A stretch of DNA of 64,000 bases from Thermoproteota archaeon (GCA_026986575.1 JALSOH010000006.1:384001-448000), one strand, 5' to 3'; numbered from the stretch's first letter, positions 15,919 through 60,292 are shown. Translations and numbers: made by a program. The notes: generated from the sequence alone by a model not told the origin.

Positions 15919-16503
15919 TCACTTGAACACACTATCTATTAACCTTCTAAGAGTTTTCCTGACTTTAGGTGGATTGTCCACAGAGATGGGCAACCTCTCA
16001 ATGCTCTTCCTCAGAACCTCCTTCAGGTCAAGATCTAGCTCACTGCTCATCGCTTTCACATACTCCCAGTCGATCCTATCCCCGACCTCCGTGAGTATAA
16101 CCGCTATATCAGCGAGGTCCCTCTCCCTGCGAGCTAGTGCCTTGAGTAAGAGCGCATCCTCGGGCGATATGACCCATACCCTCCTCCCGTCAATTTCCGC
16201 CTCTACGGCCCTCTCTAAGAGCTGCCTCACGCTCAATCCAGAGACTCTCTCCACATAAACGTCTATATCCCCTTTCATCCTATGCTTAAATTCGAGCTTT
16301 CCGAGGCGAGGGTTCTCCAACAAAACATAGCCCATACCAGATAATCCCTGCTTAAGCTTCCAGAGATCTGCCGGATCTACAGCGACATCGACATCATGGG
16401 TGGTCCTGAAAGGCCTGATGGCCGATACAGCCAGAGCTCCAAGTAGCGCGTACCTGACCTTTCTCTCCTCCGCTACGGATAAGAAATCTTCAATAGAGGA
16501 CAT
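15919..16503 (-). CDS. Nucleotidyltransferase, AbiEii-like type IV toxin
   Basis: LLGALAV..RTTHDVDV (G-x-x-A...RxTxDxD) and C-terminal K...RERDLAD. Confidence 0.7.
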   Translation of the reverse strand: MSSIEDFLSVAEERKVRYALLGALAVSAIRPFRTTHDVDVAVDPADLWKLKQGLSGMGYVLLENPRLGKLEFKHRMKGDIDVYVERVSGLSVRQLLERAVEAEIDGRRVWVISPEDALLLKALARRERDLADIAVILTEVGDRIDWEYVKAMSSELDLDLKEVLRKSIERLPISVDNPPKVRKTLRRLIDSVFK

Positions 16504-17155
16504 CAGTCATCTCCTCCACAACTGTAGGGATCTTCCCACCGAGGGCTGCCAGATCCAGAACGCCTCTCCCCAACCAGGTGATGAGCTCCAACTTCAACCT
16601 CTCCTCCGTCACCACCGGCCAACCAGATATAACCTCGCTAGCTGGTAGCTCTCTCACTGGGATGAGGACGAGATCAGCCAGCCCGTGGGCCCTCCTTCCC
16701 AGAGAGATCCATCTCTCTAAGTCCCGCTCCCTCACATAGGCAAAGGCTGCAGACGGTGTCTGGAACCCTGTTCTTATGTAAGCAGCCGTTTCGTAGCATA
16801 GCACGTAGTCATCTCCCTCACTACTTTCCTTAAGGAGCTCCATTGATCTCTTCCAGCCTCCGGCCTGGAGACGCACGGCCCTATCAAACAGCTTCTCTAT
16901 GTGGAAAACTCCCAGTACATCCTCAGCCTCCATTTTACCAATGATCTTGGCCCTATCAGTCGGGATAAAGACATTCTCCTCTCTTCTGAGCCATCCCCTA
17001 TCTTCAAGTTCTCTCATCTTTCTATAGACAGTAGTCTTTGGTAAAGATGCCTCAATAGCAGCTCTAGAGGGAGTTAGGGGTCCCCTGAGGGCGAGCCATA
17101 TGAGGAAGAGGGAGGACTCATCTATTCCCATATATGGTAAGAGACCCACTTTCAT
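16490..17155 (-). CDS. N-terminal wHTH protein, AbiEi-like antitoxin/regulator
   Basis: LTPSRAAIEASLPKTTVYRKMRELEDRGWL HTH; overlaps the downstream NTase gene. Confidence 0.6.
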   Translation of the reverse strand: MKVGLLPYMGIDESSLFLIWLALRGPLTPSRAAIEASLPKTTVYRKMRELEDRGWLRREENVFIPTDRAKIIGKMEAEDVLGVFHIEKLFDRAVRLQAGGWKRSMELLKESSEGDDYVLCYETAAYIRTGFQTPSAAFAYVRERDLERWISLGRRAHGLADLVLIPVRELPASEVISGWPVVTEERLKLELITWLGRGVLDLAALGGKIPTVVEEMTDVLY

Positions 17156-17442: not shown

Positions 17443-18759
17443 ATGAACTTGCGTTCCCTGTTAGAGCGCTTGACTAATGAGGAAGACGCATCTATACGTG
17501 TGGCCATTAATGAGTCCTCCGATCCTCCCGTGATAAGGAGAAGCTATTCCCAAATTTTCTATGGAAAGGATCTCCCACCTCAACCGCCTGTGGAGGTAAT
17601 TAAAGCGGGGGACCTGCGGGATGCCGACCTGTTCGTTGCGGTCGACTTGGTAATCTCCCTGACGGGAGCTTCCTCCCCCGATGAGGTCAAATCTGGAGCT
17701 GAATCTCTCCTTAGAGAACTAGCTAGGAAGGTAAGGTTGAGGGCGGAGGACTCGAAGAAGAGCAATGTGGCGCTGGCCCTGCCAGAGAGGCGCCACTTGG
17801 AGGAGGTTAAGGGAAAGTGGACCAAGTGGGTGTGGAAGCGAACTGCCTACGACGGGACCCCAGCTCCAGACTTCAATGGCTGGGTCAGGGACTTGATCTC
17901 TTTGGCAGATGCAATAAGGGGGGAGGGAGTGAGGGTCGTCTTCATGGCTGGCGAGTCCGGCAAGGTTCTGGAGGAGATGGGATACGAGGTCGTCAGTGTG
18001 AGCATCGAGGAGACGCTGCCTAAGCTGGGCTACCCTAGGGATCCCAGCGTAGCGTGGTCCGAGCAGCCGATCCTCATGAACATGGCGCTGGACATAAGGG
18101 GGGGCGAAGAAGAGGTCGCTAGATCCTTCTTTCAGAAGAATGGCTTGACTCCGGTGTTCAGGCCTAGGTGGTGGCGTAATGGTGAGATACTCGTCAGAGC
18201 CAAGGCCGAGGGAGGGAACTTCATACTGGTCGAGGGGGAGGGAGGGAAACGAGCCTTGTTCACCGGAATTGGAGTTAGGGGGAGTAACGTGGCCGCTCCC
18301 AAATTACTCCAAGAGTTCCTCATCTCGCAGGGCCTGAATATCGAGGTTTACGGGGTTCCCCTACCCGGCTACATACGGGATTGGCGAACAGGGGCCGTCC
18401 ATCTCGACGTTGTGATGATGCACGCAGGTCCCGTGACTTTCGTGAGCCCGGGCAGGATGGGGTTCTACTCACTTGTTAAGTACGGCGAGTCCCTCGAGAT
18501 AGTAGAGTTGGGTCAAGTGTTCCGTGACTTGGGCATAACAGTGGACGAGATACCTGCTGAGGGCAGCGAGATCACCATGGTGAACGGTCTCAACTTGGGG
18601 AACGGGAAGATAGTGGTGGATTCCTTCAACAGGGACGCGAACAGGTACTTGGAGAGGGAGTGGGGGCTAGACCTCATTGAGGTGAGCATACCCCAGATAG
18701 AGGCCGGCGGCGGAGGTGCGAGGTGCGCTACTAGGGAGTTCTACGTATCACGCGAGTGA
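17443..18759 (+). CDS. Arginine deiminase / amidinotransferase family protein
   Basis: YPRDP, EGGN, HLDV and C-terminal GGGGARCAT catalytic Cys motif. Confidence 0.85.
   Translation: MNLRSLLERLTNEEDASIRVAINESSDPPVIRRSYSQIFYGKDLPPQPPVEVIKAGDLRDADLFVAVDLVISLTGASSPDEVKSGAESLLRELARKVRLRAEDSKKSNVALALPERRHLEEVKGKWTKWVWKRTAYDGTPAPDFNGWVRDLISLADAIRGEGVRVVFMAGESGKVLEEMGYEVVSVSIEETLPKLGYPRDPSVAWSEQPILMNMALDIRGGEEEVARSFFQKNGLTPVFRPRWWRNGEILVRAKAEGGNFILVEGEGGKRALFTGIGVRGSNVAAPKLLQEFLISQGLNIEVYGVPLPGYIRDWRTGAVHLDVVMMHAGPVTFVSPGRMGFYSLVKYGESLEIVELGQVFRDLGITVDEIPAEGSEITMVNGLNLGNGKIVVDSFNRDANRYLEREWGLDLIEVSIPQIEAGGGGARCATREFYVSRE
18709..18744 (+). repeat. 36-bp direct repeat, left copy (attL-like, in the 3' end of the deiminase gene)
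   Basis: GGCGGAGGTGCGAGGTGCGCTACTAGGGAGTTCTAC, identical to 22514-22549. Confidence 0.9.
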
Positions 18760-18886
18760 GCTATCGTAAAACCCCTCAAGGAACTCATTGCTTTTCTAGA
18801 TGGGAAGAATCGGGCTACTTTACCGCTGATTAGATATACTCAATAGTTCAGCCGTTATTCCGACCCATACCGTAGGAAAAGGGGAA

Positions 18887-20257
18887 TTAGAGAGGAACGT
18901 CGCACAGGTATCTCAACATAAACAGAGAGAGCAGCAAGATGCAAGTATCTATCAGCAGGAAGGCAGAGTACAGCGCACCTACATCCACCACGAACCCGTT
19001 CAGTGATTCCAAGAAGACCATGATGAACACGGACTCGGCCACTACCATGATGGGGGTGAGCTTTAACCACCCAATGGACTGGAAGGTCCACATGGATTCT
19101 CTCTTCGGTAGCAGCCTGCATATCAGGAGATTATACAGGGAGGAGAAGGATATCACGGTAAAGATGAATACTGTGAGGTAGTAGACCAAGTTCCCTCCTG
19201 AGATCAGTGAAAATACGACGATAGGGATGTTTATCGCGAGACATATGATCACGTAAAGGGCGTACTTCGACAGGGAGACCTGTAACTTGGTTAAAGGCAG
19301 GATATAGAGGAGGGAAGAGCCAGAGCCCTCCAAGGAGTACAACCAGATTGTGAAGAGAGGGAGTATCACACCCAGCTCCAAGAGGGAAGCCAAGGTCAGG
19401 TTGAGCAACGCCGCGTTTGAACTTACTTCAGAAGTGTAGATCGTGATGATAGAGTGTGGAAATACGGAAAATAGTATTAAAGCCAGTATCCAAGGTCTCC
19501 TCCTGATCAAGATCAACTCCTTCTTTAGGAGAGTCATGTGAGGCAATTCTGCGTACTCATTCCCGGCAGGAGCGACATTAGGAAACTCATGCAATCTCCC
19601 TATTACTCTACCGAAGGCCATTGCAGTTAAGTAGAAATATCCTATCAGAAGTATACTTCTCTCTAAGATAGACGAGCTAAAGAGAATCGTAAGAAGAGGA
19701 CCTAAATACGTAAAAAGAATAATAGAACCTACCCAACTTAAGGTGATTAACCACGGAACTCTCCTAAATGAAATTTCCACGCAGGCCATTCCCAGTATAG
19801 TACCTAATACAGCTAGAAAACTACTAAGCCATACTAGGATGAAGATAGCATTAAACCGGAAGTCGAGGAGAGTATAGTAGGGGGGGATTAAGAGCGGGGA
19901 GAGGGCAAGACCACCCCAAAGTAAATGCGCAATAATTACTGCTGCAATGACAGTTCTAGGCCTAATAGGCAACATCAGTATTGGCATCAGAGACTTAGTG
20001 TCCTTGATAGATCTGTAATTGATAATAGACAGTGTAAAGAACGAAAATATATAAACCAGTTGACTAACTTTAATGTAAGATTGAATACTATCTCCATCTC
20101 TAACCAATATTATGAGGAAGAAGGACATTATGATAGAGGCTATAAATAGCAAAATATTAGACAATAGAATCCTAACTAAACTAATAGAATTACCACTTCT
20201 ATAGCTTCCTTCGCGGATTATTATCAAAGCTATCCGGAGAGGCAGAGGAATTCTCAA
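18887..20257 (-). CDS. Multi-TM ABC-type exporter permease (paralog of 30849-32327 and 58805-60292)
   Basis: Shared motifs REGSYRS, LWGG.A, GSSLLYILPLT and LLP....WT...IG. Confidence 0.65.
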   Translation of the reverse strand: MRIPLPLRIALIIIREGSYRSGNSISLVRILLSNILLFIASIIMSFFLIILVRDGDSIQSYIKVSQLVYIFSFFTLSIINYRSIKDTKSLMPILMLPIRPRTVIAAVIIAHLLWGGLALSPLLIPPYYTLLDFRFNAIFILVWLSSFLAVLGTILGMACVEISFRRVPWLITLSWVGSIILFTYLGPLLTILFSSSILERSILLIGYFYLTAMAFGRVIGRLHEFPNVAPAGNEYAELPHMTLLKKELILIRRRPWILALILFSVFPHSIITIYTSEVSSNAALLNLTLASLLELGVILPLFTIWLYSLEGSGSSLLYILPLTKLQVSLSKYALYVIICLAINIPIVVFSLISGGNLVYYLTVFIFTVISFSSLYNLLICRLLPKRESMWTFQSIGWLKLTPIMVVAESVFIMVFLESLNGFVVDVGALYSAFLLIDTCILLLSLFMLRYLCDVPL

Positions 20258-20359
20258 GGTTCCATACCCTAAAGATTTACTCGTCTACTTAAAAATTAAT
20301 GGACATTAGTATGACTTGCATTCATCATATCATGGCTGAATAATTTATTAGTTAAAAAG

Positions 20360-20986
20360 TTAATCCAATGTGAAAATAACAACGTTATATATATGGATAT
20401 ATAGCAAAATAGCTAAGGAAAAGATAGCTGAAGATGCACACCTTATATCGAATTTTCCGGATAATTTATATAAGGAACATAGCCAGAAAAAGAAAATTAT
20501 CAAGTCTATTGCTATAAACAGATAAGGGCTAATGATAAGATCAAATTCGGACCTCAATAATATAAAAAAAGAAGGTATTACAAATTCAATTAGTCTAAGT
20601 AGAAAGACCGAACTCTCTCCTATCTGAAGAAATATCAAATAAAATCCGAAGCTTAGGAGCGTGTCTCTTAATTTTATTGTATGTTCCTTACAGAAAGTCG
20701 TAATGGTTAAGTAAAATATCTCAGTAACAAGGAATAGGACGAATAAACTAGCTAACCCATGTGCAAGAAAACCTGCCGCGATCACTAAGAATAATCCTCC
20801 AAGAAAATTCTGAAGAAGCACCGTAAATTCTCTGAGGAGATACATTGTCAAACTTGTAGTATACAATAGAGATGAGATCAGTATAGTTGATAGTAGAATG
20901 ATAACCTTTCGATGAGGGCTAACATTATCTAGAAAAAGACAGAAACCCCAAACTCTATTCAATATCCTGATTACAAGGAATTTCAC
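20360..20986 (-). CDS. Polytopic membrane protein, possibly Yip1-like
   Basis: 208 aa with about 5 TM segments; family inferred from size, topology and context. Confidence 0.5.
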   Translation of the reverse strand: MKFLVIRILNRVWGFCLFLDNVSPHRKVIILLSTILISSLLYTTSLTMYLLREFTVLLQNFLGGLFLVIAAGFLAHGLASLFVLFLVTEIFYLTITTFCKEHTIKLRDTLLSFGFYLIFLQIGESSVFLLRLIEFVIPSFFILLRSEFDLIISPYLFIAIDLIIFFFWLCSLYKLSGKFDIRCASSAIFSLAILLYIHIYNVVIFTLD

Positions 20987-21090
20987 AAGAATGCCTCCTT
21001 TAGACTCATAATACCATGTTCTCTGACCGGTGCGTTGATCTTAAGTAAATTTTTATATATTTGCGCCCTAATTATAAATGTGGTGGTTCC

Positions 21091-21345
21091 GTGGATCAGA
21101 GGAAAATAGTTTCAGTAATCCTGATGTTGCAAATCATATTTCTTGCGGCGCCCTTTTGGATGAGCGGAAAAGCAGGAATGATATGGGGAGCTATAGCATA
21201 TCACGTCCATACACATTATCATAACCATCTAGCTTCGCACGTAGCTTTACATATGGCTATCACTCATATCATGATATACACCTTAGCAGGGTCTGGGTTT
21301 GGACCCATCGGAGCGTTAGCTGGCTTTCTAATAGGAATAGCATAA
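21091..21345 (+). CDS. 84-aa hydrophobic, His-rich peptide; candidate archaeocin/circular-peptide precursor
   Basis: GTG start after a GGTGG RBS; hydrophobic N-terminus, 8 His in 22 residues, Gly/Ala-rich C-terminus GPIGALAGFLIGIA. Confidence 0.6.
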   Translation: MDQRKIVSVILMLQIIFLAAPFWMSGKAGMIWGAIAYHVHTHYHNHLASHVALHMAITHIMIYTLAGSGFGPIGALAGFLIGIA

Positions 21346-21385
21346 ACCTAATTCTCTAACATTTTTATATCTTAGGTGAGGAGAC

Positions 21386-21796
21386 ATGTTATCCAAAAAG
21401 CGAAATCTTGTTGGTATTATGATATTTTTCATACTCATGACAATTTTCTTCGGAGTCTTTTCATATCAGTTGTGGATCTCTGAACCGGAGGATTTCCTCT
21501 TATATTTCGCTGTAGGATTTACCTCTAGCATTCTTATATTCCTACTTTTCTCTGGAGATGTTGATCCTTTGGATATGTCTTGGAGGGGAATAGATGTAAA
21601 AGATAGGAGAACTCTCCTAAAGTATCTAATCTTAATAGGCCTAGTAGGTGCACTGCTAGGATCAGCACTCCCTCATGCTCTTGGATATCAGAATGAATTT
21701 CTGTATATAGCAGCTTGGTATACAGTAGGGCTGGGTGTAGCAGTTGCTTCGCTCTTGATATTGCCCATACTCAGCTATTTTCATAACAGAAAATAA
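21386..21796 (+). CDS. Small 4-TM membrane protein (candidate immunity protein)
   Basis: GGTGAGGAG RBS and four hydrophobic segments; function inferred from context. Confidence 0.6.
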   Translation: MLSKKRNLVGIMIFFILMTIFFGVFSYQLWISEPEDFLLYFAVGFTSSILIFLLFSGDVDPLDMSWRGIDVKDRRTLLKYLILIGLVGALLGSALPHALGYQNEFLYIAAWYTVGLGVAVASLLILPILSYFHNRK

Positions 21797-21811
21797 AGTA
21801 GAAACACGGAG

Positions 21812-22435
21812 GTGGATGTTATAAATATCGGTGAAAAAGGTATTTGGATAGCAGCTCTTCTCCTGTATTTTGTGGGGTTCGGCTTGTCTCTTCTGGACAA
21901 CTCCACCCTGCAACATCCTACTACTCTCCGATGGAAATACATTGACTTAAAACTAAATCGCGAATATTATTTTATAATTACCTATGATTTTTTTAAAATT
22001 TGTCGAATGGATGACTACTCAAAAATTAAACTCATTTTGATAAACAATTTAGAGAGTGTTGTATTGACTGTGATGGGAGGAGTTGCTCTCTCGATACCGA
22101 CCGTCGTATCTACACTGTACAATGGATATCTTTTTGGCTCTTTTATCGGAGGTGCGCTTGCGAGTGGGCTAAGTTTAATCGAAATAATAAAACTAACTGT
22201 GTTTCATGGATTTATAGAGATAGCAGGATTCTTGATGGCGACTGTTGCAGGAATGCGTATCTCACTTTTATTAAAAGATTTATTGATATCATTACCTGAA
22301 GATCAAGATTTCTCTAAGAAGATGCGATTAAAAATTATAAGTATTATGAAACTCTTCCTATACTCTCTAATTTTTATTACTATAGCGGGATTGATAGAGG
22401 TGTACATCTCAATAGACCTAATCCTCTGCGGATAA
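21812..22435 (+). CDS. Stage II sporulation protein M (SpoIIM/DUF95) family membrane protein
   Basis: ILINNL, YNGYLFG, FHGFIEI and IAGLIEVYIS motifs. Confidence 0.85.
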   Translation: MDVINIGEKGIWIAALLLYFVGFGLSLLDNSTLQHPTTLRWKYIDLKLNREYYFIITYDFFKICRMDDYSKIKLILINNLESVVLTVMGGVALSIPTVVSTLYNGYLFGSFIGGALASGLSLIEIIKLTVFHGFIEIAGFLMATVAGMRISLLLKDLLISLPEDQDFSKKMRLKIISIMKLFLYSLIFITIAGLIEVYISIDLILCG

Positions 22436-22513
22436 CTCACCTATATTAATTTTAGGCAAATAATCAGGAGTTTCACTTACCTGCTATTTTGAAACAGCCA
22501 AATTGAGGCTGGA

Positions 22514-22549
22514 GGCGGAGGTGCGAGGTGCGCTACTAGGGAGTTCTAC
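22514..22549 (+). repeat. 36-bp direct repeat, right copy (attR-like)
   Basis: Identical to 18709-18744; local reading QIEAGGGGARCATREFYK* reproduces the deiminase C-terminus. Confidence 0.9.
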
Positions 22550-22601
22550 AAATGAAAATTCGTTAAACTTATATTATCACGGGGTTATATCGGCCGGTGG
22601 G

Positions 22602-23159
22602 ATGTTGGTCAGGCCCATGACCTTGTACGCCTTGGCCTCTTCCTTCGGAGGAGAGTCCATGGCCCACATGCGCTACATCCTCTTCGCCGAGAAGGCGGAG
22701 AGGGAAGGCTTTCCCAACGTCGCCAGATTGTTCAGGGCGATCGCCTATGCTGAGAGGGTCCACGCGAACAACCACTTCAACGCACTCTCCGAACTCAAGG
22801 GAGACCTGAAGGTGGTGGCCGGAGCGACCTTCGGCCCCGGGAGCACCTCCAAGAACTTGGAGCTTGCAATTATGGGGGAGGAATACGAGGTAGAGGAAAT
22901 GTATCCTGCATACATATCGGTGGCCGAGCTTCAGGGGGAGAGGAGAGCTGCTACAAGCTTCAAATGGGCCTTGGAGGCTGAGAAAATACATGCTGAGCTG
23001 TTCAGAGAGGCGAAGGATTATGTGGACAGGGGAGAGGATTACCCATTGGATGGGAAGATCTGGATATGTCCCGTATGCGGGCATACTCACGTGGGCCCGG
23101 AACCTCCGGAGAGATGCCCGGTCTGCGGGGCGCCTAGGGATAGGTACGAGGGTTTCTGA
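22602..23159 (+). CDS. rbr: Rubrerythrin
   Basis: GES.A..RY, EKAEREGF, AERVHA, E.YE...MYP, AEKIH and C-terminal CPVCG...CPVCG; the ORF extension to 22503 runs through the att repeat and is spurious. Confidence 0.9.
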   Translation: MLVRPMTLYALASSFGGESMAHMRYILFAEKAEREGFPNVARLFRAIAYAERVHANNHFNALSELKGDLKVVAGATFGPGSTSKNLELAIMGEEYEVEEMYPAYISVAELQGERRAATSFKWALEAEKIHAELFREAKDYVDRGEDYPLDGKIWICPVCGHTHVGPEPPERCPVCGAPRDRYEGF

Positions 23160-54849: not shown

Positions 54850-55142
54850 TGACACTCGTGATCTACGACATCAGCGACGATGATATCAGGAAATCCGTGG
54901 AGAAGGTATGCAAGAACTATGGACTCAGACACATACAGAGGAGCGCCTTCATCGGCCTCCTATCCAGAGGAGACAGATACAGTCTCTACAAGGAGCTGAA
55001 AAGGCTGCTCTGGGAGGAAAAAGGATCTATACGAATATATGTGATGAATCGGAGGCTCTACAACATGAGGATGTCTGTGGGCGTCTTGGAGGGCTTCGAT
55101 GATGACCCAGAATACGATGAAGAGGTTTATATCAGGCCCTGA
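54846..55142 (+). CDS. cas2: CRISPR-associated endonuclease Cas2
   Basis: LVIYDISDD and GL.HIQRSAF.G. Confidence 0.95.
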   Translation: MMTLVIYDISDDDIRKSVEKVCKNYGLRHIQRSAFIGLLSRGDRYSLYKELKRLLWEEKGSIRIYVMNRRLYNMRMSVGVLEGFDDDPEYDEEVYIRP

Positions 55143-55677
55143 GGTCAGGGCATCCGACCTGAGGCAGTGGTACTATTGCCCACGCTTAATATACTGGAGA
55201 TACACTTTCAGGGCACCTTGGAGGCCAGGTAGAATCACGAAACTTGATGAGAAGCACGATCCCAGCTGGGTGGGGAGGTTGAAGGCCTTCAGTGGCTGTG
55301 AGGTGGAGAGGAACGTGTGCCTTAGATCAAAAACCCTCAACCTAGTGGGATGCATGGATGCCCTCCTGATGTGCGGCGATGAACTCATCCCTTTGGAGAT
55401 GAAGAGAGGAACCATCAGAGATGGGCACGACGTTCAGCTGTGTGCATACGCTATGCTGATAGAGGAGAACTTCGAAGTGAAAGTGACGAGAGGATACCTA
55501 TACTATCCCGGTGAAAAACTGGAGGAAGTTCCTATGGACAACGCGCTGAGAAAGAAGGTCTTGAGGACTTTAGATCTCATCAGGAGAATCCTAGAGGAAG
55601 GCATGATGCCGGAGCCAACGAAGGATAAGTGGAAGTGCAGAGTGTGTGATCACTACACTTATTGTGGCGGTGTCTGA
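55099..55677 (+). CDS. cas4: CRISPR-associated exonuclease Cas4
   Basis: YYCPR, G.MD...PLEMK, QLCAYA and C-terminal KCRVC.H...C; start possibly 55117. Confidence 0.95.
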   Translation: MMTQNTMKRFISGPEVRASDLRQWYYCPRLIYWRYTFRAPWRPGRITKLDEKHDPSWVGRLKAFSGCEVERNVCLRSKTLNLVGCMDALLMCGDELIPLEMKRGTIRDGHDVQLCAYAMLIEENFEVKVTRGYLYYPGEKLEEVPMDNALRKKVLRTLDLIRRILEEGMMPEPTKDKWKCRVCDHYTYCGGV

Positions 55678-55691
55678 TCCCCTTTCTTTTC

Positions 55692-57755
55692 GAGCCCTGA
55701 TTGCTTCGGAGGAGATCGCTAAGTTACTTGAGCAAGCTACGGAGACTTTCAATCTTCGCTCCTTAGGAGCCCTGATTGCTTCTTCAGGCACTCTGTTTTC
55801 TTGTGAAGAGCGATAGAAAAGCTTTCAATCTTCGCTCCTTAGGAGCCCTGATTGCTTCCTCTGTTGTGGCACTAGCATGTGTACATACCCATTCACCTCA
55901 ACTTTCAATCTTCGCTCCTTAGGAGCCCTGATTGCTTCTAGCTTTCTCAAGCTGCTGCCTCAACTGAGATTCCATCTCCAAGATAAGCTTTCAATCTTCG
56001 CTCCTTAGGAGCCCTGATTGCTTCCTGTTGCCGCCCGCCTTCCCTCCCATTTATACACCAAATTCATGAAGCTTTCAATCTTCGCTCCTTAGGAGCCCTG
56101 ATTGCTTCGGGCCACTAGAGGGATGGTGACAGAGTTTCTACCGCCCTTAGCGACGGCTTTCAATCTTCGCTCCTTAGGAGCCCTGATTGCTTCGTTCCGA
56201 GTTTCTAGCTCTAGTTCGCTTCCTTATACGCTTTTCTTTCAATCTTCGCTCCTTAGGAGCCCTGATTGCTTCATCTCAAGAGAGGGGGCTCTAGAGACAG
56301 GAGGTACTTCAGAACTTTCAATCTTCGCTCCTTAGGAGCCCTGATTGCTTCAGGAGTATGCCCGTGCATATGATCAGATCGAGGATGTTGTCGAGTTCAA
56401 GTTGGGTTTGGTCTTTCAATCTTCGCTCCTTAGGAGCCCTGATTGCTTCTCTGCATTTGGAGGGTGACCCCCCCATCTCCCTTCTCTTTCAATCTTCGCT
56501 CCTTAGGAGCCCTGATTGCTTCGAGTTCTCTTAGCTGATTTGATCTTCACCCAAGGAGGTAAGCTTTCAATCTTCGCTCCTTAGGAGCCCTGATTGCTTC
56601 AAGAGGATAGAGCATTATTCTCTCTAGATCTCCCTCCATCTTCTCAGCTTTCAATCTTCGCTCCTTAGGAGCCCTGATTGCTTCGTGTAAGCAAAGATGA
56701 GAGTCTTAGATCTCTTTTTTGGCATGGGTCTTTCAATCTTCGCTCCTTAGGAGCCCTGATTGCTTCAGGGATTACTTTGGGTATCCCTACTTTGATGTGT
56801 CTTTCTTTGGAACCTTTCAATCTTCGCTCCTTAGGAGCCCTGATTGCTTCGGTAAGCTCGACCCAGTCCTCGTCCATGCGATCGAGGTGCAGCTTCTCTT
56901 TCAATCTTCGCTCCTTAGGAGCCCTGATTGCTTCTACAAGCAGAAGAGGTGGCTGACTAAGAAAGAGCTGGCCGAAAGCTTTCAATCTTCGCTCCTTAGG
57001 AGCCCTGATTGCTTCATCTTGACTGGAGGGTGCTCGGCTATCAACCAGATGTCGTGTACTCTTCTTTCAATCTTCGCTCCTTAGGAGCCCTGATTGCTTC
57101 TATAAATCAGCCTTCTTTCGGTGAGGGAGAGATAAAAAGGATTTTCCTTTCAATCTTCGCTCCTTAGGAGCCCTGATTGCTTCGGCCGAAATACAGGATA
57201 AAATAGCGAAAAAGCTCCAGCTAGCGACCTTTCAATCTTCGCTCCTTAGGAGCCCTGATTGCTTCTGCCAGCCTACACATCAGTAGACAGGGAAAGGGGA
57301 TGGGTGTACTCCGACTTTCAATCTTCGCTCCTTAGGAGCCCTGATTGCTTCAAGGCATTCCTCATTGAGATAAAGAGGACTAGGGGAAGCTTTCAATCTT
57401 CGCTCCTTAGGAGCCCTGATTGCTTCAATCGTGAATCTGACCCCGCACAACATATCCGTCTTCGTCGCTGGCTTTCAATCTTCGCTCCTTAGGAGCCCTG
57501 ATTGCTTCGCGAGGAAGGACAGGGGCTACCTCACTCAGTCTCAGAAGGAACTTTCAATCTTCGCTCCTTAGGAGCCCTGATTGCTTCGTACAGAAAAAGT
57601 GTCTCACCGAAGGAGATCATTGTTGTGTTAAGACTTTCAATCTTCGCTCCTTAGGAGCCCTGATTGCTTCGAAGGAGCTGGCTAAGGCCAAAGCTGGTAC
57701 GGTACCCACTCCTCCTGACTTTCAATCTTCGCTCCTTAGGAGCCCTGATTGCTTC
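55692..57755 (-). CRISPR. CRISPR array: 25 identical 37-bp repeats plus one degenerate terminal repeat, 25 spacers of 36-61 bp
   Basis: Repeat (minus strand) GAAGCAATCAGGGCTCCTAAGGAGCGAAGATTGAAAG with a GCTCC/GGAGC hairpin and ATTGAAAG 3' end; full copies from 55746 to 57755; partial copy 55692-55707. Confidence 0.97.
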
Positions 57756-58055: not shown

Positions 58056-58796
58056 ATGCTCAAGTATGAGAATGTGACCAAAAGCTACGGGGCCGTACAT
58101 GCGCTCAGAGGAGTATCTGTCCATTTTCAACCAAGTAAAATACACGCTATCCTTGGTCCAAACGGTTCGGGCAAGTCTACATTAATGAAAATGGCTATTG
58201 GTCTCGTTAAACCGGATTTGGGGACAGTTAGGGTGTATGGGATAGATCCGGTGGAGGATCCTATATCGGCTAGGAAGATAGTGGGGTACGCTCCCGAGGA
58301 GATAGTGATATACGAGAGCCTCACGCCAGCAGAGTACCTCAGCTTCCTCGGCTACATTTACGGCATCCCGAAGGATGGGCTGGAGATCCGATTGAAGACT
58401 CTGATCAAGATCTTCAAGATGGAGGAGCACATGGGGAAGCTGGGAGGGGAACTCAGCCACGGCAACAGGAGGAAGCTCCTCATCATGTCCGCCCTGATAC
58501 ACGATCCGAAGGTACTCATACTGGACGAGCCCTTCTCTGGACTCGATCCCGAGATAGCGAGAGTTCTGAAGGAGCTAATGAGGAAGTACGCGGAGGAAGG
58601 GAGGATCGTCATCTTCTCCACTCACATACTGGAACTGGCTGAGGCGGTGGCTGACGAGGTCACCATAATGCACTTGGGCGAGGTTGTGGCGAAGGGACCA
58701 ATGGAGGAACTCAGGGGAAAGAAGGACCTCGAAACCTACTTCCTCGAGGTCACGGGCCTAACCTCAGAGCTGGAGGAGTTGTTGAAGGCCCTCTAG
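58056..58796 (+). CDS. ABC-2 type exporter ATP-binding protein
   Basis: GPNGSGKST, LSHGNRRK, ILDEP and STH. Confidence 0.9.
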   Translation: MLKYENVTKSYGAVHALRGVSVHFQPSKIHAILGPNGSGKSTLMKMAIGLVKPDLGTVRVYGIDPVEDPISARKIVGYAPEEIVIYESLTPAEYLSFLGYIYGIPKDGLEIRLKTLIKIFKMEEHMGKLGGELSHGNRRKLLIMSALIHDPKVLILDEPFSGLDPEIARVLKELMRKYAEEGRIVIFSTHILELAEAVADEVTIMHLGEVVAKGPMEELRGKKDLETYFLEVTGLTSELEELLKAL

Positions 58797-58804
58797 GTGA
58801 TCTC

Positions 58805-60292
58805 ATGTCTTGGCGGAGGATAGCTGAGGTCGTTGCTAGGGAAGCAGCCTACAGGTCGAGGAGGGAGGCTGAAAGGAGCCTCCGCTTCTTCAGGATGAGC
58901 GGAGGGAGCATGCTCAAGTACAACGCGTTCCTCCTCGCTGTGTTTACCTTCATGTCCTCCATGATCGGCCTGAGCGCCTTCAGCGGGCCCGAGGTGGCAT
59001 ATCTAACCCTGATAATGCTGTTCCTGATGGAGATCCTTATGGGAGTGCTATTCATGGCCCTCAACCTCCAAGTACTCGTCTCGGACAGGCTCCTCGATCC
59101 GATATTCCACCTCCCGGTGAGCGAGCCTGAGATAAGGAGGGCGCTCCTCTGGGTGGGCATCTACTGGGGAGGCGCCGCCTTACCCTTCGTCCTGATTCCC
59201 GGGGCTGCCGTGGAGTCCTACCTCTTAAGAGATCCCCTCATCCTGGTGGGGGCGATAATGGGCTCACTCATCGCCTTGGTCCTGTCAATGGCCCTCGGCT
59301 ACTTGGCAGGTTCTCTAGCCACTAGGTACACGAGGAGTCTTAAGGGAAGGGCCGTCTCCACGGTAGTTTGGCTCCTAGTCCTGAGCGTGGGATTCATCAT
59401 GGGCCCCCTTATGGACGCTGTCTCCCAGCTCTACGAGGGCGGAGCCGTTCAAGCTCTGTACATGGTACCCCCGATAAGCTTTGCAGTGATGTTCGAGAGC
59501 TCCGGGGCCCTGTTGTCCTCTCTTCTCCTAGTTCTAGTCTCATATATCCTATTCAGGACTGGTACATCCAGATTCTGGAGGGTGGTCACGAGAGGAGAAG
59601 TCCCCTTGCCCAAGAGACCGGCTAAATGGAGCCTGAGTTTCGGTTTCACTGCCGCCTTAATGAAGGAGGTGAAGATGGCCACTAGGACACCCAGGATCTT
59701 CGCATCCATCATAATGTATTCCTTTATCTTCCCACTCGTCTTTATATTCCCCTTCTTCAGCGAGGGACTGCCACAGGGGTTTTCGGGTTTCCTCGCCCCC
59801 CTGGTCCTCGCGGTAGGGGGTCTCGGTGGCTTCTCCATCCTTTACCTTTACGTGATGGAAGCCTCTGGAGCCAAAACCCTATACTCGCTCCCCCTCACGA
59901 GGGGCAGGGTAGCCTTGGTGAAGTTTTACACATTCCTGACGGTAAACATGCCCGTAGCGATTCTGATAGCGGCAGCGCTCGCTGTGCTAATGCCCAACGG
60001 TGCAATACCCGCCCTCATATATCTGGCAGCCCTCTCCGGATCAGCCCTACTAAATTCACTGACCTACGCTCTTCTCTTACCGAAGGAACCCTCCCACTGG
60101 TCCACCGAGACCTTCGGCAGAACTCTCGTGGCGGTACTCTTCCTGATAGAGGGGATGGCCTACTTCTCCGTGGGAATCGCCTCCCTCTTCCTGCCTAATG
60201 GGCTCCGGGCTACTACTTCCCTCATCACCTTAGCAGCGATCTGGATCGTGGATTCGATCCTCCTCACCGTGAGTGGAAGGAGGGCCTTGTAA
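58805..60292 (+). CDS. Multi-TM ABC exporter permease
   Basis: About 12 TM helices, directly downstream of the ATPase. Confidence 0.8.
   Translation: MSWRRIAEVVAREAAYRSRREAERSLRFFRMSGGSMLKYNAFLLAVFTFMSSMIGLSAFSGPEVAYLTLIMLFLMEILMGVLFMALNLQVLVSDRLLDPIFHLPVSEPEIRRALLWVGIYWGGAALPFVLIPGAAVESYLLRDPLILVGAIMGSLIALVLSMALGYLAGSLATRYTRSLKGRAVSTVVWLLVLSVGFIMGPLMDAVSQLYEGGAVQALYMVPPISFAVMFESSGALLSSLLLVLVSYILFRTGTSRFWRVVTRGEVPLPKRPAKWSLSFGFTAALMKEVKMATRTPRIFASIIMYSFIFPLVFIFPFFSEGLPQGFSGFLAPLVLAVGGLGGFSILYLYVMEASGAKTLYSLPLTRGRVALVKFYTFLTVNMPVAILIAAALAVLMPNGAIPALIYLAALSGSALLNSLTYALLLPKEPSHWSTETFGRTLVAVLFLIEGMAYFSVGIASLFLPNGLRATTSLITLAAIWIVDSILLTVSGRRAL

Follow-up and report, generated by a model that had tools for sequence, protein, structure and literature searches.

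A mobile low-GC island in a hydrothermal-vent archaeon carrying a SpoIIM/DUF95 gene and a candidate bacteriocin-like peptide

Could archaea, too, be producers of ring-shaped antimicrobial peptides? The question is raised by a five-gene cassette at positions 18887–22435 of a 64,000-nucleotide (nt) stretch of DNA from a Thermoproteota archaeon (hereafter the window; G000:C6:384001-448000), the source being a 1.9-Mb archaeal genome (G000) assembled from a hydrothermal-vent metagenome. An earlier note on this DNA had proposed that the cassette, with a small peptide gene, a SpoIIM/DUF95 gene, a 'Yip1-like' gene and a permease gene, resembles the clusters for head-to-tail cyclised bacteriocins. According to the excerpts of PMC6131525 used here, circular bacteriocins are known experimentally from bacteria only, mainly Bacillota, with their cutting and ligation unsolved. 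We found that the cassette lies on a discrete, accessory and mobile insertion of about 3.75 kb of DNA with a low guanine-plus-cytosine (GC) content, acquired through recombination within the 3′ end of a housekeeping gene, at a 52-nt site, and that at least five other cassette types, unrelated to one another, likewise pair a small hydrophobic open reading frame (ORF) with a stand-alone SpoIIM gene in accessory DNA of low GC content. The product of the small ORF may be a bacteriocin-like peptide, as argued below.

The GC content per kb falls to 32–45% at 18.9–22.5 kb, as compared with about 53% on either side, and the 3,753 bases between the repeats (18745–22497) have 38.7% GC versus 52.6% for the remaining window. 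This segment is bordered by two att-like copies of a 52-nt direct repeat, both on the plus strand, the left one (18693–18744) lying at the 3′ end of an amidinotransferase/arginine-deiminase-like gene (17443–18759) and the right one (22498–22549) overlapping the listed start of a rubrerythrin ORF (22503–23159). The two copies are 92% identical overall and identical over their last 37 nt, with a 36-nt core of the repeat occurring genome-wide only at these two sites. The amidinotransferase/arginine-deiminase-like gene is present in 16 of 21 genomes of the genus (the source genome counted in), and in the source genome its last codons are altered by the insertion. An empty site was found in all of the six closest relatives fetched, where the match to 18744–18748 joins directly the match to 22498 or 22505 onward (in one of the six, the sequence ends at a contig end after 45 nt), and each of them holds the repeat in a single copy. 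The island DNA itself was found in none of the 20 other genus genomes. It is because of the direct repeats, the empty site in six of six relatives and this absence from the genus that we regard the island as accessory and mobile, and the discrete insertion flanked by a direct repeat, with an empty site in relatives, is what is new here. In run X4, a joint from 18748 to 23080 (depth 4.6, side 45) resembles an island-free relative in that sample, a sign that is weak by the method's own caveats. As a separate observation, the frame matching the amidinotransferase/arginine-deiminase-like gene holds one in-frame TGA in two other genomes (G011:C35 and G020:C62).

All five ORFs claimed by the earlier note were found in their places within the AT-rich island, arranged as two divergent units. 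On the minus strand lie the genes for a polytopic membrane protein of 456 amino acids (aa; 18887–20257) and for a 208-aa membrane protein with about five to six hydrophobic segments (20360–20986), the latter with GGAGG 8 nt before its GTG. The plus strand encodes a candidate precursor peptide of 84 aa (21091–21345; GTG start at 21091, frame open from 21061, 94 codons), a 136-aa protein with four hydrophobic segments as a candidate accessory or immunity protein (21386–21796), and a 207-aa SpoIIM/DUF95 membrane protein of the stand-alone accessory type (21812–22435), with the peptide ORF ending 466 nt before the start of the same-strand SpoIIM gene. ORFs of 136–456 codons are not expected by chance in AT-rich DNA. 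As read from the sequence, GGAGG-type ribosome-binding motifs precede the 208-aa and 136-aa ORFs, and the intergenic region between the divergent units has a TATA-like box at 21050–21059. Hydrophobicity is strong in all five products, with grand average of hydropathy (GRAVY) values of 0.85–1.24.

The SpoIIM/DUF95 assignment held in the profile check that the earlier note had asked for, the 207-aa protein matching Pfam SpoIIM (PF01944) with an E-value of 1.1e-17 and 64.9 bits, well above the cut-off of 26.9. It is distinct from the RDD–SpoIIM fusion of the host. When PLSDB was searched with the protein using tblastn, a single record was returned, a SpoIIM gene on the Bacillus thuringiensis plasmid NZ_CP017573.1 (29.6% identity, 69% covered, E 4e-3; pairwise E 4.5e-10), which begins 92 nt after a gene annotated as 'circular bacteriocin, circularin A/uberolysin family'.

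The setting of SpoIIM genes in the phylum was surveyed with the SpoIIM profile in 27 genomes of at least 90% completeness. Every one of the 27 had a match, nearly all of them in an open frame of about 475–577 aa, which in the source genome is an RDD (PF06271)–SpoIIM fusion among ordinary genes (G000:C4:794398-795780; L035:700-2082). This fusion of housekeeping type is found in 27 of 27 genomes and has no small hydrophobic ORF as a neighbour; two shorter frames (235 and 291 aa) were read as the same gene cut by contig ends, being sole copies on short loci. Stand-alone SpoIIM genes, of about 170–225 aa, were by contrast sporadic, with 13 copies in five of the 27 genomes (five in G003, four in the source genome, two in G020 and one each in G019 and G044). 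Directly upstream of 12 of these 13 genes, on the same strand, we found an ORF of 61–113 aa with a GRAVY of at least 0.5, the 13th being cut by a contig end. Small hydrophobic ORFs so defined (at most 115 aa, GRAVY at least 0.5) number 58 among the 2314 of a greedy ORF set of the source genome. Several of the 13 copies are orthologs and thus not independent, but together they make up about six distinct cassette types, all with a small hydrophobic ORF upstream of SpoIIM. As a housekeeping contrast, three more distant archaea have stand-alone SpoIIM genes that lie among housekeeping genes without such a neighbour. The variable small peptide genes that the earlier note expected beside DUF95 homologs were accordingly found at 12 of the 13 loci; the alignment of their peptides, which it had also called for, gave no similarity between types in BLASTP.

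Besides the window type, with its island at 18745–22497, the cassettes are the following. Type A, present in the source genome, G020 and G003, combines a peptide with SpoIIM, a 190-aa transmembrane (TM) protein, an ATP-binding cassette (ABC) ATPase and two permeases. In the source genome this locus lies beside an rRNA operon (G000:C4 ~149.4–153.0 kb; L010:4286-7974) and encodes a peptide of about 103 aa, SpoIIM, a 197-aa TM protein, the ABC ATPase (PF00005, 1.6e-30) and the two permeases. Its peptide is conserved, with 94% identity in G020 and 53% in G003, and has an Arg/Lys-rich mature part; because of this conservation between species we take the small ORF to be a real gene. Type B, in the same three genomes (G000 C4 ~163.7–166 kb, L011:5696-8035; G020 L046:13222-15561; G003 L009:8395-10183), holds a hydrophobic peptide of 81 aa that is rich in Gly and Ala, a membrane-bound M48/M56-type metallopeptidase (HExxH; PF01435, 3e-22 to 2e-24) that is a candidate leader peptidase, SpoIIM and a 199-aa TM protein. 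Type C, in the source genome, G019 and G003, has a peptide of 86–91 aa, further small TM ORFs, SpoIIM and a TM protein of 235–248 aa; in the source genome (G000:C1:33499-33989; L047:7243-8504) these are hydrophobic ORFs of 86 and 61 aa, a 189-aa SpoIIM and a 235-aa TM protein, and the peptides share 95% and 89% identity with their G019 counterparts. One further type in G003 comprises three small TM ORFs, SpoIIM and M48, and G044 holds another distinct peptide–SpoIIM cassette. SpoIIM is the only homologous protein between cassette types (14–51 bits), and the peptide, 136-aa, 208-aa and 456-aa proteins of the window have no counterpart in the other types. Near the type B cassettes, tRNA-like stretches of high GC content were also noted.

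The 84-aa form of the window's peptide, starting from GTG 21091, is the one present in protein libraries. Its start is short and basic and is followed by about 18 hydrophobic residues and then by a core of 53–55 aa, so that the N-terminal stretch before the core comprises about 30 aa. The core has no Lys, Arg, Asp or Glu but eight His residues, including an HxHxHxHxH run and five His at i+4 spacing, and its Gly-rich hydrophobic end reaches the stop codon. Because it has no fixed charges and carries its His stripe on one helix face, the core should carry no charge at neutral pH and become strongly cationic in acid. The 5′ part of the peptide gene is overlapped by a second frame (21078–21224; 48 codons) with its ATG about 23 nt after the TATA-like box. 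Among clusters compared by protein language model, a class IIc cyclic bacteriocin cluster ranked first for the peptide (PF12173 on 44% of members; 0.89, 170 of 256 features), with PF09221 at rank 3 (0.87) and a 'putative cyclic bacteriocin' cluster, PF16942, at rank 7 (0.81); such scores are leads. AlphaFold models were made from the single sequence, without an alignment, and gave for the 84-aa form an all-helical structure (helices 3–22, 27–43, 46–66 and 71–83, the last three after the leader) with a predicted local distance difference test (pLDDT) score of 66.9. The predicted SpoIIM–peptide complex scored 0.00, which, in a prediction made without controls, counts neither for nor against an interaction. 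The only PDB sequences that the peptide retrieved were triosephosphate isomerases, at chance level, and PHROGs gave one weak match of unknown function (0.0052). A type IV pilin-like signal was also considered for the small ORFs and, from a reading of the sequences, set aside: the Lys/Arg-Gly/Ala cleavage motif is absent from the window's peptide, and none of the ORFs is long enough for a pilin.

As for the other membrane proteins of the island, the 456-aa protein matched the 12TM_1 family (PF09847) with an E-value of 0.0026 and 17.4 bits (18.7 in a second search), below the curated cut-off of 33.2, over profile positions 185–439; the precomputed label in a protein library is also PF09847. It is 25% identical over 441 columns (E 3e-9) to a 495-aa 12-TM protein encoded at 58805–60292, which starts 8 nt after an ABC ATPase gene (58056–58796). 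This pair (58056–60292, plus strand) is not part of the island, and the 495-aa protein is the nearest paralog of the 456-aa one, which we therefore take to be a 12-TM permease of the ABC-partner type without an ATPase of its own. Given this basis in a sub-threshold profile match and in paralogy, the label 'ABC-type permease' of the earlier note was too firm. The ABC ATPase at 58056–58796 already has its own permease directly downstream, and its loan to the island permease is possible. For the 208-aa protein, the nearest ESM-Atlas clusters are annotated as 'putative Yip1 domain-containing protein' (0.94, 207 of 256 features, and 0.92), with PF04893 on 16% of the members of a further cluster (0.91); among shuffled proteins, 4–10% reach 0.9 by the method's own figures. 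The 136-aa protein, with an isoelectric point of 7.98 and 10 Lys plus Arg versus nine Asp plus Glu, is hydrophobic and neither small nor clearly cationic, and had no match to a Pfam or NCBIfam family. A word-indexed search of 5.8 billion proteins returned for the SpoIIM, 456-aa and 208-aa proteins only the queries themselves, no related loci were found in the metagenome, genome or viral contigs searched, and PADLOC had no match for the island proteins.

From its architecture and context, akin to those of circular-bacteriocin clusters, we read the island as a mobile bacteriocin-like peptide/DUF95 cassette, a reading to which we would give slightly less than an even chance. Should the peptide be bacteriocin-like, closure of its core into a ring would be about as probable as its remaining linear. 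In such a cassette, the 84-aa product would be the precursor and its N-terminal hydrophobic stretch would take it to the membrane, where SpoIIM, perhaps together with the 4-TM protein, would remove the leader and mature the 53–55-aa core, shield the cell from it, or both. The 208-aa Yip1-like protein and the permease might export the core or confer immunity, with the help of an ABC ATPase whose gene lies elsewhere, and the core would act on the membranes of competitors that lack the island.

A considerable number of results weigh against this reading. When 1.84 billion representatives were searched exhaustively with the peptide using HMMER, the one match was the peptide itself, and no Pfam or NCBIfam family matched it at E 1. 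The circular-bacteriocin families PF12173, PF09221 and PF16942 had no match in the whole genome at E 10, and by sequence the peptide falls outside all known families of circular-bacteriocin peptides; its language-model scores, all below 0.9, may reflect a shared Gly/Ala/Ile/Leu-rich composition. When the 55-aa core was modelled alone it formed a helical hairpin (helices 2–39 and 42–54; pLDDT 85.3), and a Foldseek comparison of the peptide models with PDB gave nothing at E 0.001, circular bacteriocins not being among the matches listed. The saposin-like fold for which the earlier note had suggested a structure prediction is thus not supported, given the hairpin in place of a compact bundle of four to five helices and the lack of a significant PDB match. 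No ABC_tran domain or other ATPase was detected among the five island proteins by ORF map and Pfam, as the earlier note had also remarked, and the island holds no clear small cationic immunity protein, the sole candidate being the 136-aa 4-TM protein, so that it lacks two of the four features that are basic to a circular-bacteriocin cluster. The Yip1 likeness previously ascribed to the 208-aa protein did not survive profile comparison, as PF04893 gave no match to this ORF at E 1 and matched two other genes, not this one, genome-wide at E 10, while hhalign against four Yip1 proteins gave a probability of 0.3%; the likeness is one of language-model features. Pairwise scores of SpoIIM proteins do not separate bacteriocin-linked from housekeeping copies. 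Furthermore, the window's peptide had no similarity to the peptides of the other cassettes in BLASTP, so that the 'variable peptide family' is to be understood as a shared architecture. Concerning completeness as a mobile element, no integrase or recombinase domain was found among the five island ORFs in Pfam, NCBIfam and further family searches.

To these points should be added the island variant seen in run X4, where contigs carry parts of the island in a version that is 88–96% identical. Two of its indels spare the frames: the 456-aa ORF gains 9 nt at 20071, and the 136-aa ORF gains 7 nt two codons ahead of its stop. In one contig (depth 5.6), however, the peptide ORF has lost one G of the GGGG at 21185, and 29 other letters stand in place of 20999–21081; with the changes at 21185 and before 21082, the 84-aa frame would therefore break. 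Within the SpoIIM ORF, in the N-terminal portion that lies outside the Pfam match, indels at 21980, 21983 and 21988 moreover sum to −1. By hand reading, the replaced segment provides an ATG that is in frame with the 48-codon ORF at 21078–21224, and the deletion then shifts this frame into that of the peptide, so that the variant might encode the same C-terminal 53 codons after a different, hydrophilic N-terminal part, with the leader swapped and the core kept. This reading is tentative because most differences of that contig are not listed, and the window's peptide may itself start at GTG 21091 or at ATG 21078. A 37-nt AT-rich stretch in the N-terminal part of the SpoIIM ORF (21962–21998), at which the X4 contigs diverge, also matches short contigs of runs X1 and X2 with five mismatches and may represent either a short repeat or a site of recombination.

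The same facts can be arranged differently. If the island encoded an accessory membrane module with no secreted peptide at all, the small product would be a subunit of two to three helices whose His stripe handles protons or metal ions, in a complex for stress, metal or envelope handling. We consider this unlikely. In its favour are the strong hydrophobicity of all five products, the fairly confident prediction of the core as a long and a short helix with transmembrane hairpins as its only, weak, structural neighbours, and the lack of an ATPase for export in the island. Runs of the HxHxHxHxH type are typical of metal-binding segments, and DUF95 is widespread in archaea as a housekeeping gene that no bacteriocin accompanies. 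What such a module leaves unexplained is that the upstream small ORF accompanies only the sporadic stand-alone SpoIIM genes (12 of 13), that the peptides differ wholly between cassette types, that one type has a complete ABC exporter, and that the language-model neighbours are cyclic bacteriocins for the peptide and Yip1 for the 208-aa protein. If the product stayed linear, as in a toxin/immunity or recognition cassette, its N-terminal hydrophobic stretch would be an ordinary Sec-type signal or a membrane anchor, the core being released or displayed without ligation and SpoIIM and the other proteins serving for immunity or export only. By eye, the N-termini of the window's peptide and those of other cassettes do look like signal peptides (basic start, 15–20 hydrophobic and then small residues), whereas circular-bacteriocin leaders, of 2–48 residues, share no common motif in the excerpts of PMC6131525 used here, which also note that direct experimental evidence for DUF95 acting in ligation is lacking even in bacteria. 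The models predict no compact fold in which the termini would be adjacent. The parts consulted of PMC13289728 and PMC5695211, on the other hand, treat DUF95 as the class-defining gene of circular bacteriocins, and the peptide's hydrophobic helix ends exactly at the stop codon, as would a ligation partner, which is a weak argument; we find the linear alternative quite improbable.

Equally improbable, in our view, is that the island is the decaying remnant of a larger integrated element, with orphan cargo, with its ATPase and integrase lost and with a small ORF that is fortuitous, or frameshifted in some strains. Neither an integrase nor an ATPase lies between the repeats, four of the five proteins are ORFans (the 136-aa protein having no family), the X4 variant has its 1-base deletion in the peptide ORF and net −1 indels at 21980–21988 in the SpoIIM ORF, and the second frame at 21078–21224 overlaps the peptide gene, all of which would fit decay. 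Yet all five long ORFs are intact in DNA of 39% GC, two of them with good ribosome-binding motifs, and the two other X4 indels, at 20071 and at the end of the 136-aa ORF, spare their frames. By tentative hand reading, the deletion at 21185 might even join an ATG-started frame to the same C-terminal 53 codons, which would not be a dead gene. The mobile bacteriocin-like cassette remains the reading that we favour.

Elsewhere in the window, a CRISPR array at about 55747–57720 comprises 25 repeats, each of about 37 nt, with a Cas4-like gene (PF01930) at 55099–55677. Its 24 spacers gave against the island only chance matches of 9–10 nt and one 18-nt match with two mismatches (E 0.11). Just upstream of the gene that bears the insertion, a nucleotidyltransferase (DUF6036/NTP_transf_5) and a TrmB/IclR-type helix-turn-helix protein are encoded at 15919–17155 and may form a toxin–antitoxin-like pair.

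Archaea, then, may make ring-shaped antimicrobial peptides too. A more far-reaching proposal, which taken as a whole we regard as distinctly unlikely, would be that a small phylum of vent archaea carries diversifying mobile 'peptide + DUF95' cassettes, of at least six types with four in the source genome, making head-to-tail cyclised membrane-active peptides, the first circular 'archaeocins'. The window's core would then be a charge-free His-striped helix that turns from inert to cationic and lytic in acid, and the M48 peptidase of some sister cassettes could be the long-sought leader peptidase. If these archaeal cassettes do make cyclised peptides, the class of circular bacteriocins would reach a second domain of life and high temperature, very small self-contained gene sets, some with an M48 peptidase, would become available for dissecting DUF95, and new heat-stable, possibly pH-switchable membrane-active peptides might be obtained. 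Even if the peptides are not cyclised, the clean island, whose site stands empty in relatives, is a good natural test case for accessory roles of DUF95 and could bear on how strains of uncultured vent archaea compete.

How, finally, does the island compare with known systems? In the excerpts of PMC6131525 used here, the basic features of a circular-bacteriocin cluster are a precursor gene, a small cationic immunity protein, an ABC ATPase with a membrane protein and a DUF95 protein, with a SpoIIM/DUF95 gene present in all known clusters. In the island, the SpoIIM/DUF95 gene and the adjoining peptide gene were confirmed, but the ATPase, a clear small cationic immunity protein, a known precursor family and a Yip1 profile match were not. 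No report of an archaeal circular-bacteriocin cluster was found in the literature searched, which did not extend to the 2019 mBio survey of archaeal antimicrobials by Makarova and colleagues, and the words 'circular' and 'head-to-tail' are absent from a survey of archaeal lanthipeptides (PMC10105419). In relation to the ABC-partner permeases of the 12TM_1 family (PF09847), the 456-aa protein is alike in being a paralog of an ATPase-adjoining 12-TM protein, and different in its score below the cut-off and in having no adjacent ATPase. With the other peptide–SpoIIM cassettes of the phylum the island has in common a SpoIIM of 170–225 aa, an upstream hydrophobic ORF of at most 115 aa, low GC content and a patchy distribution, whereas at the level of homologous proteins SpoIIM alone is shared.

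From the circular-bacteriocin clusters of Bacillota the island differs in its archaeal host, in a peptide outside the known precursor families with a long, signal-peptide-like N-terminal stretch, in having neither an ATPase nor a clear small cationic immunity gene, and in the absence of a predicted saposin-like fold. Its core also contrasts with the usual one, which is cationic and 58–70 aa long, by having 53–55 aa, no Lys or Arg, and eight His. The cluster on the B. thuringiensis plasmid NZ_CP017573.1 has the order Yip1, Yip1, bacteriocin, SpoIIM, a 583-aa membrane protein and an ABC ATPase, and its proteins have no sequence similarity to those of the window save for SpoIIM. The likeness to this cluster is one of arrangement: in the island, too, the peptide gene lies just upstream of a same-strand SpoIIM/DUF95 gene, accompanied by a 5–6-TM protein that is Yip1-like by language model and by a large polytopic membrane protein, and both sets of genes are carried on mobile DNA.

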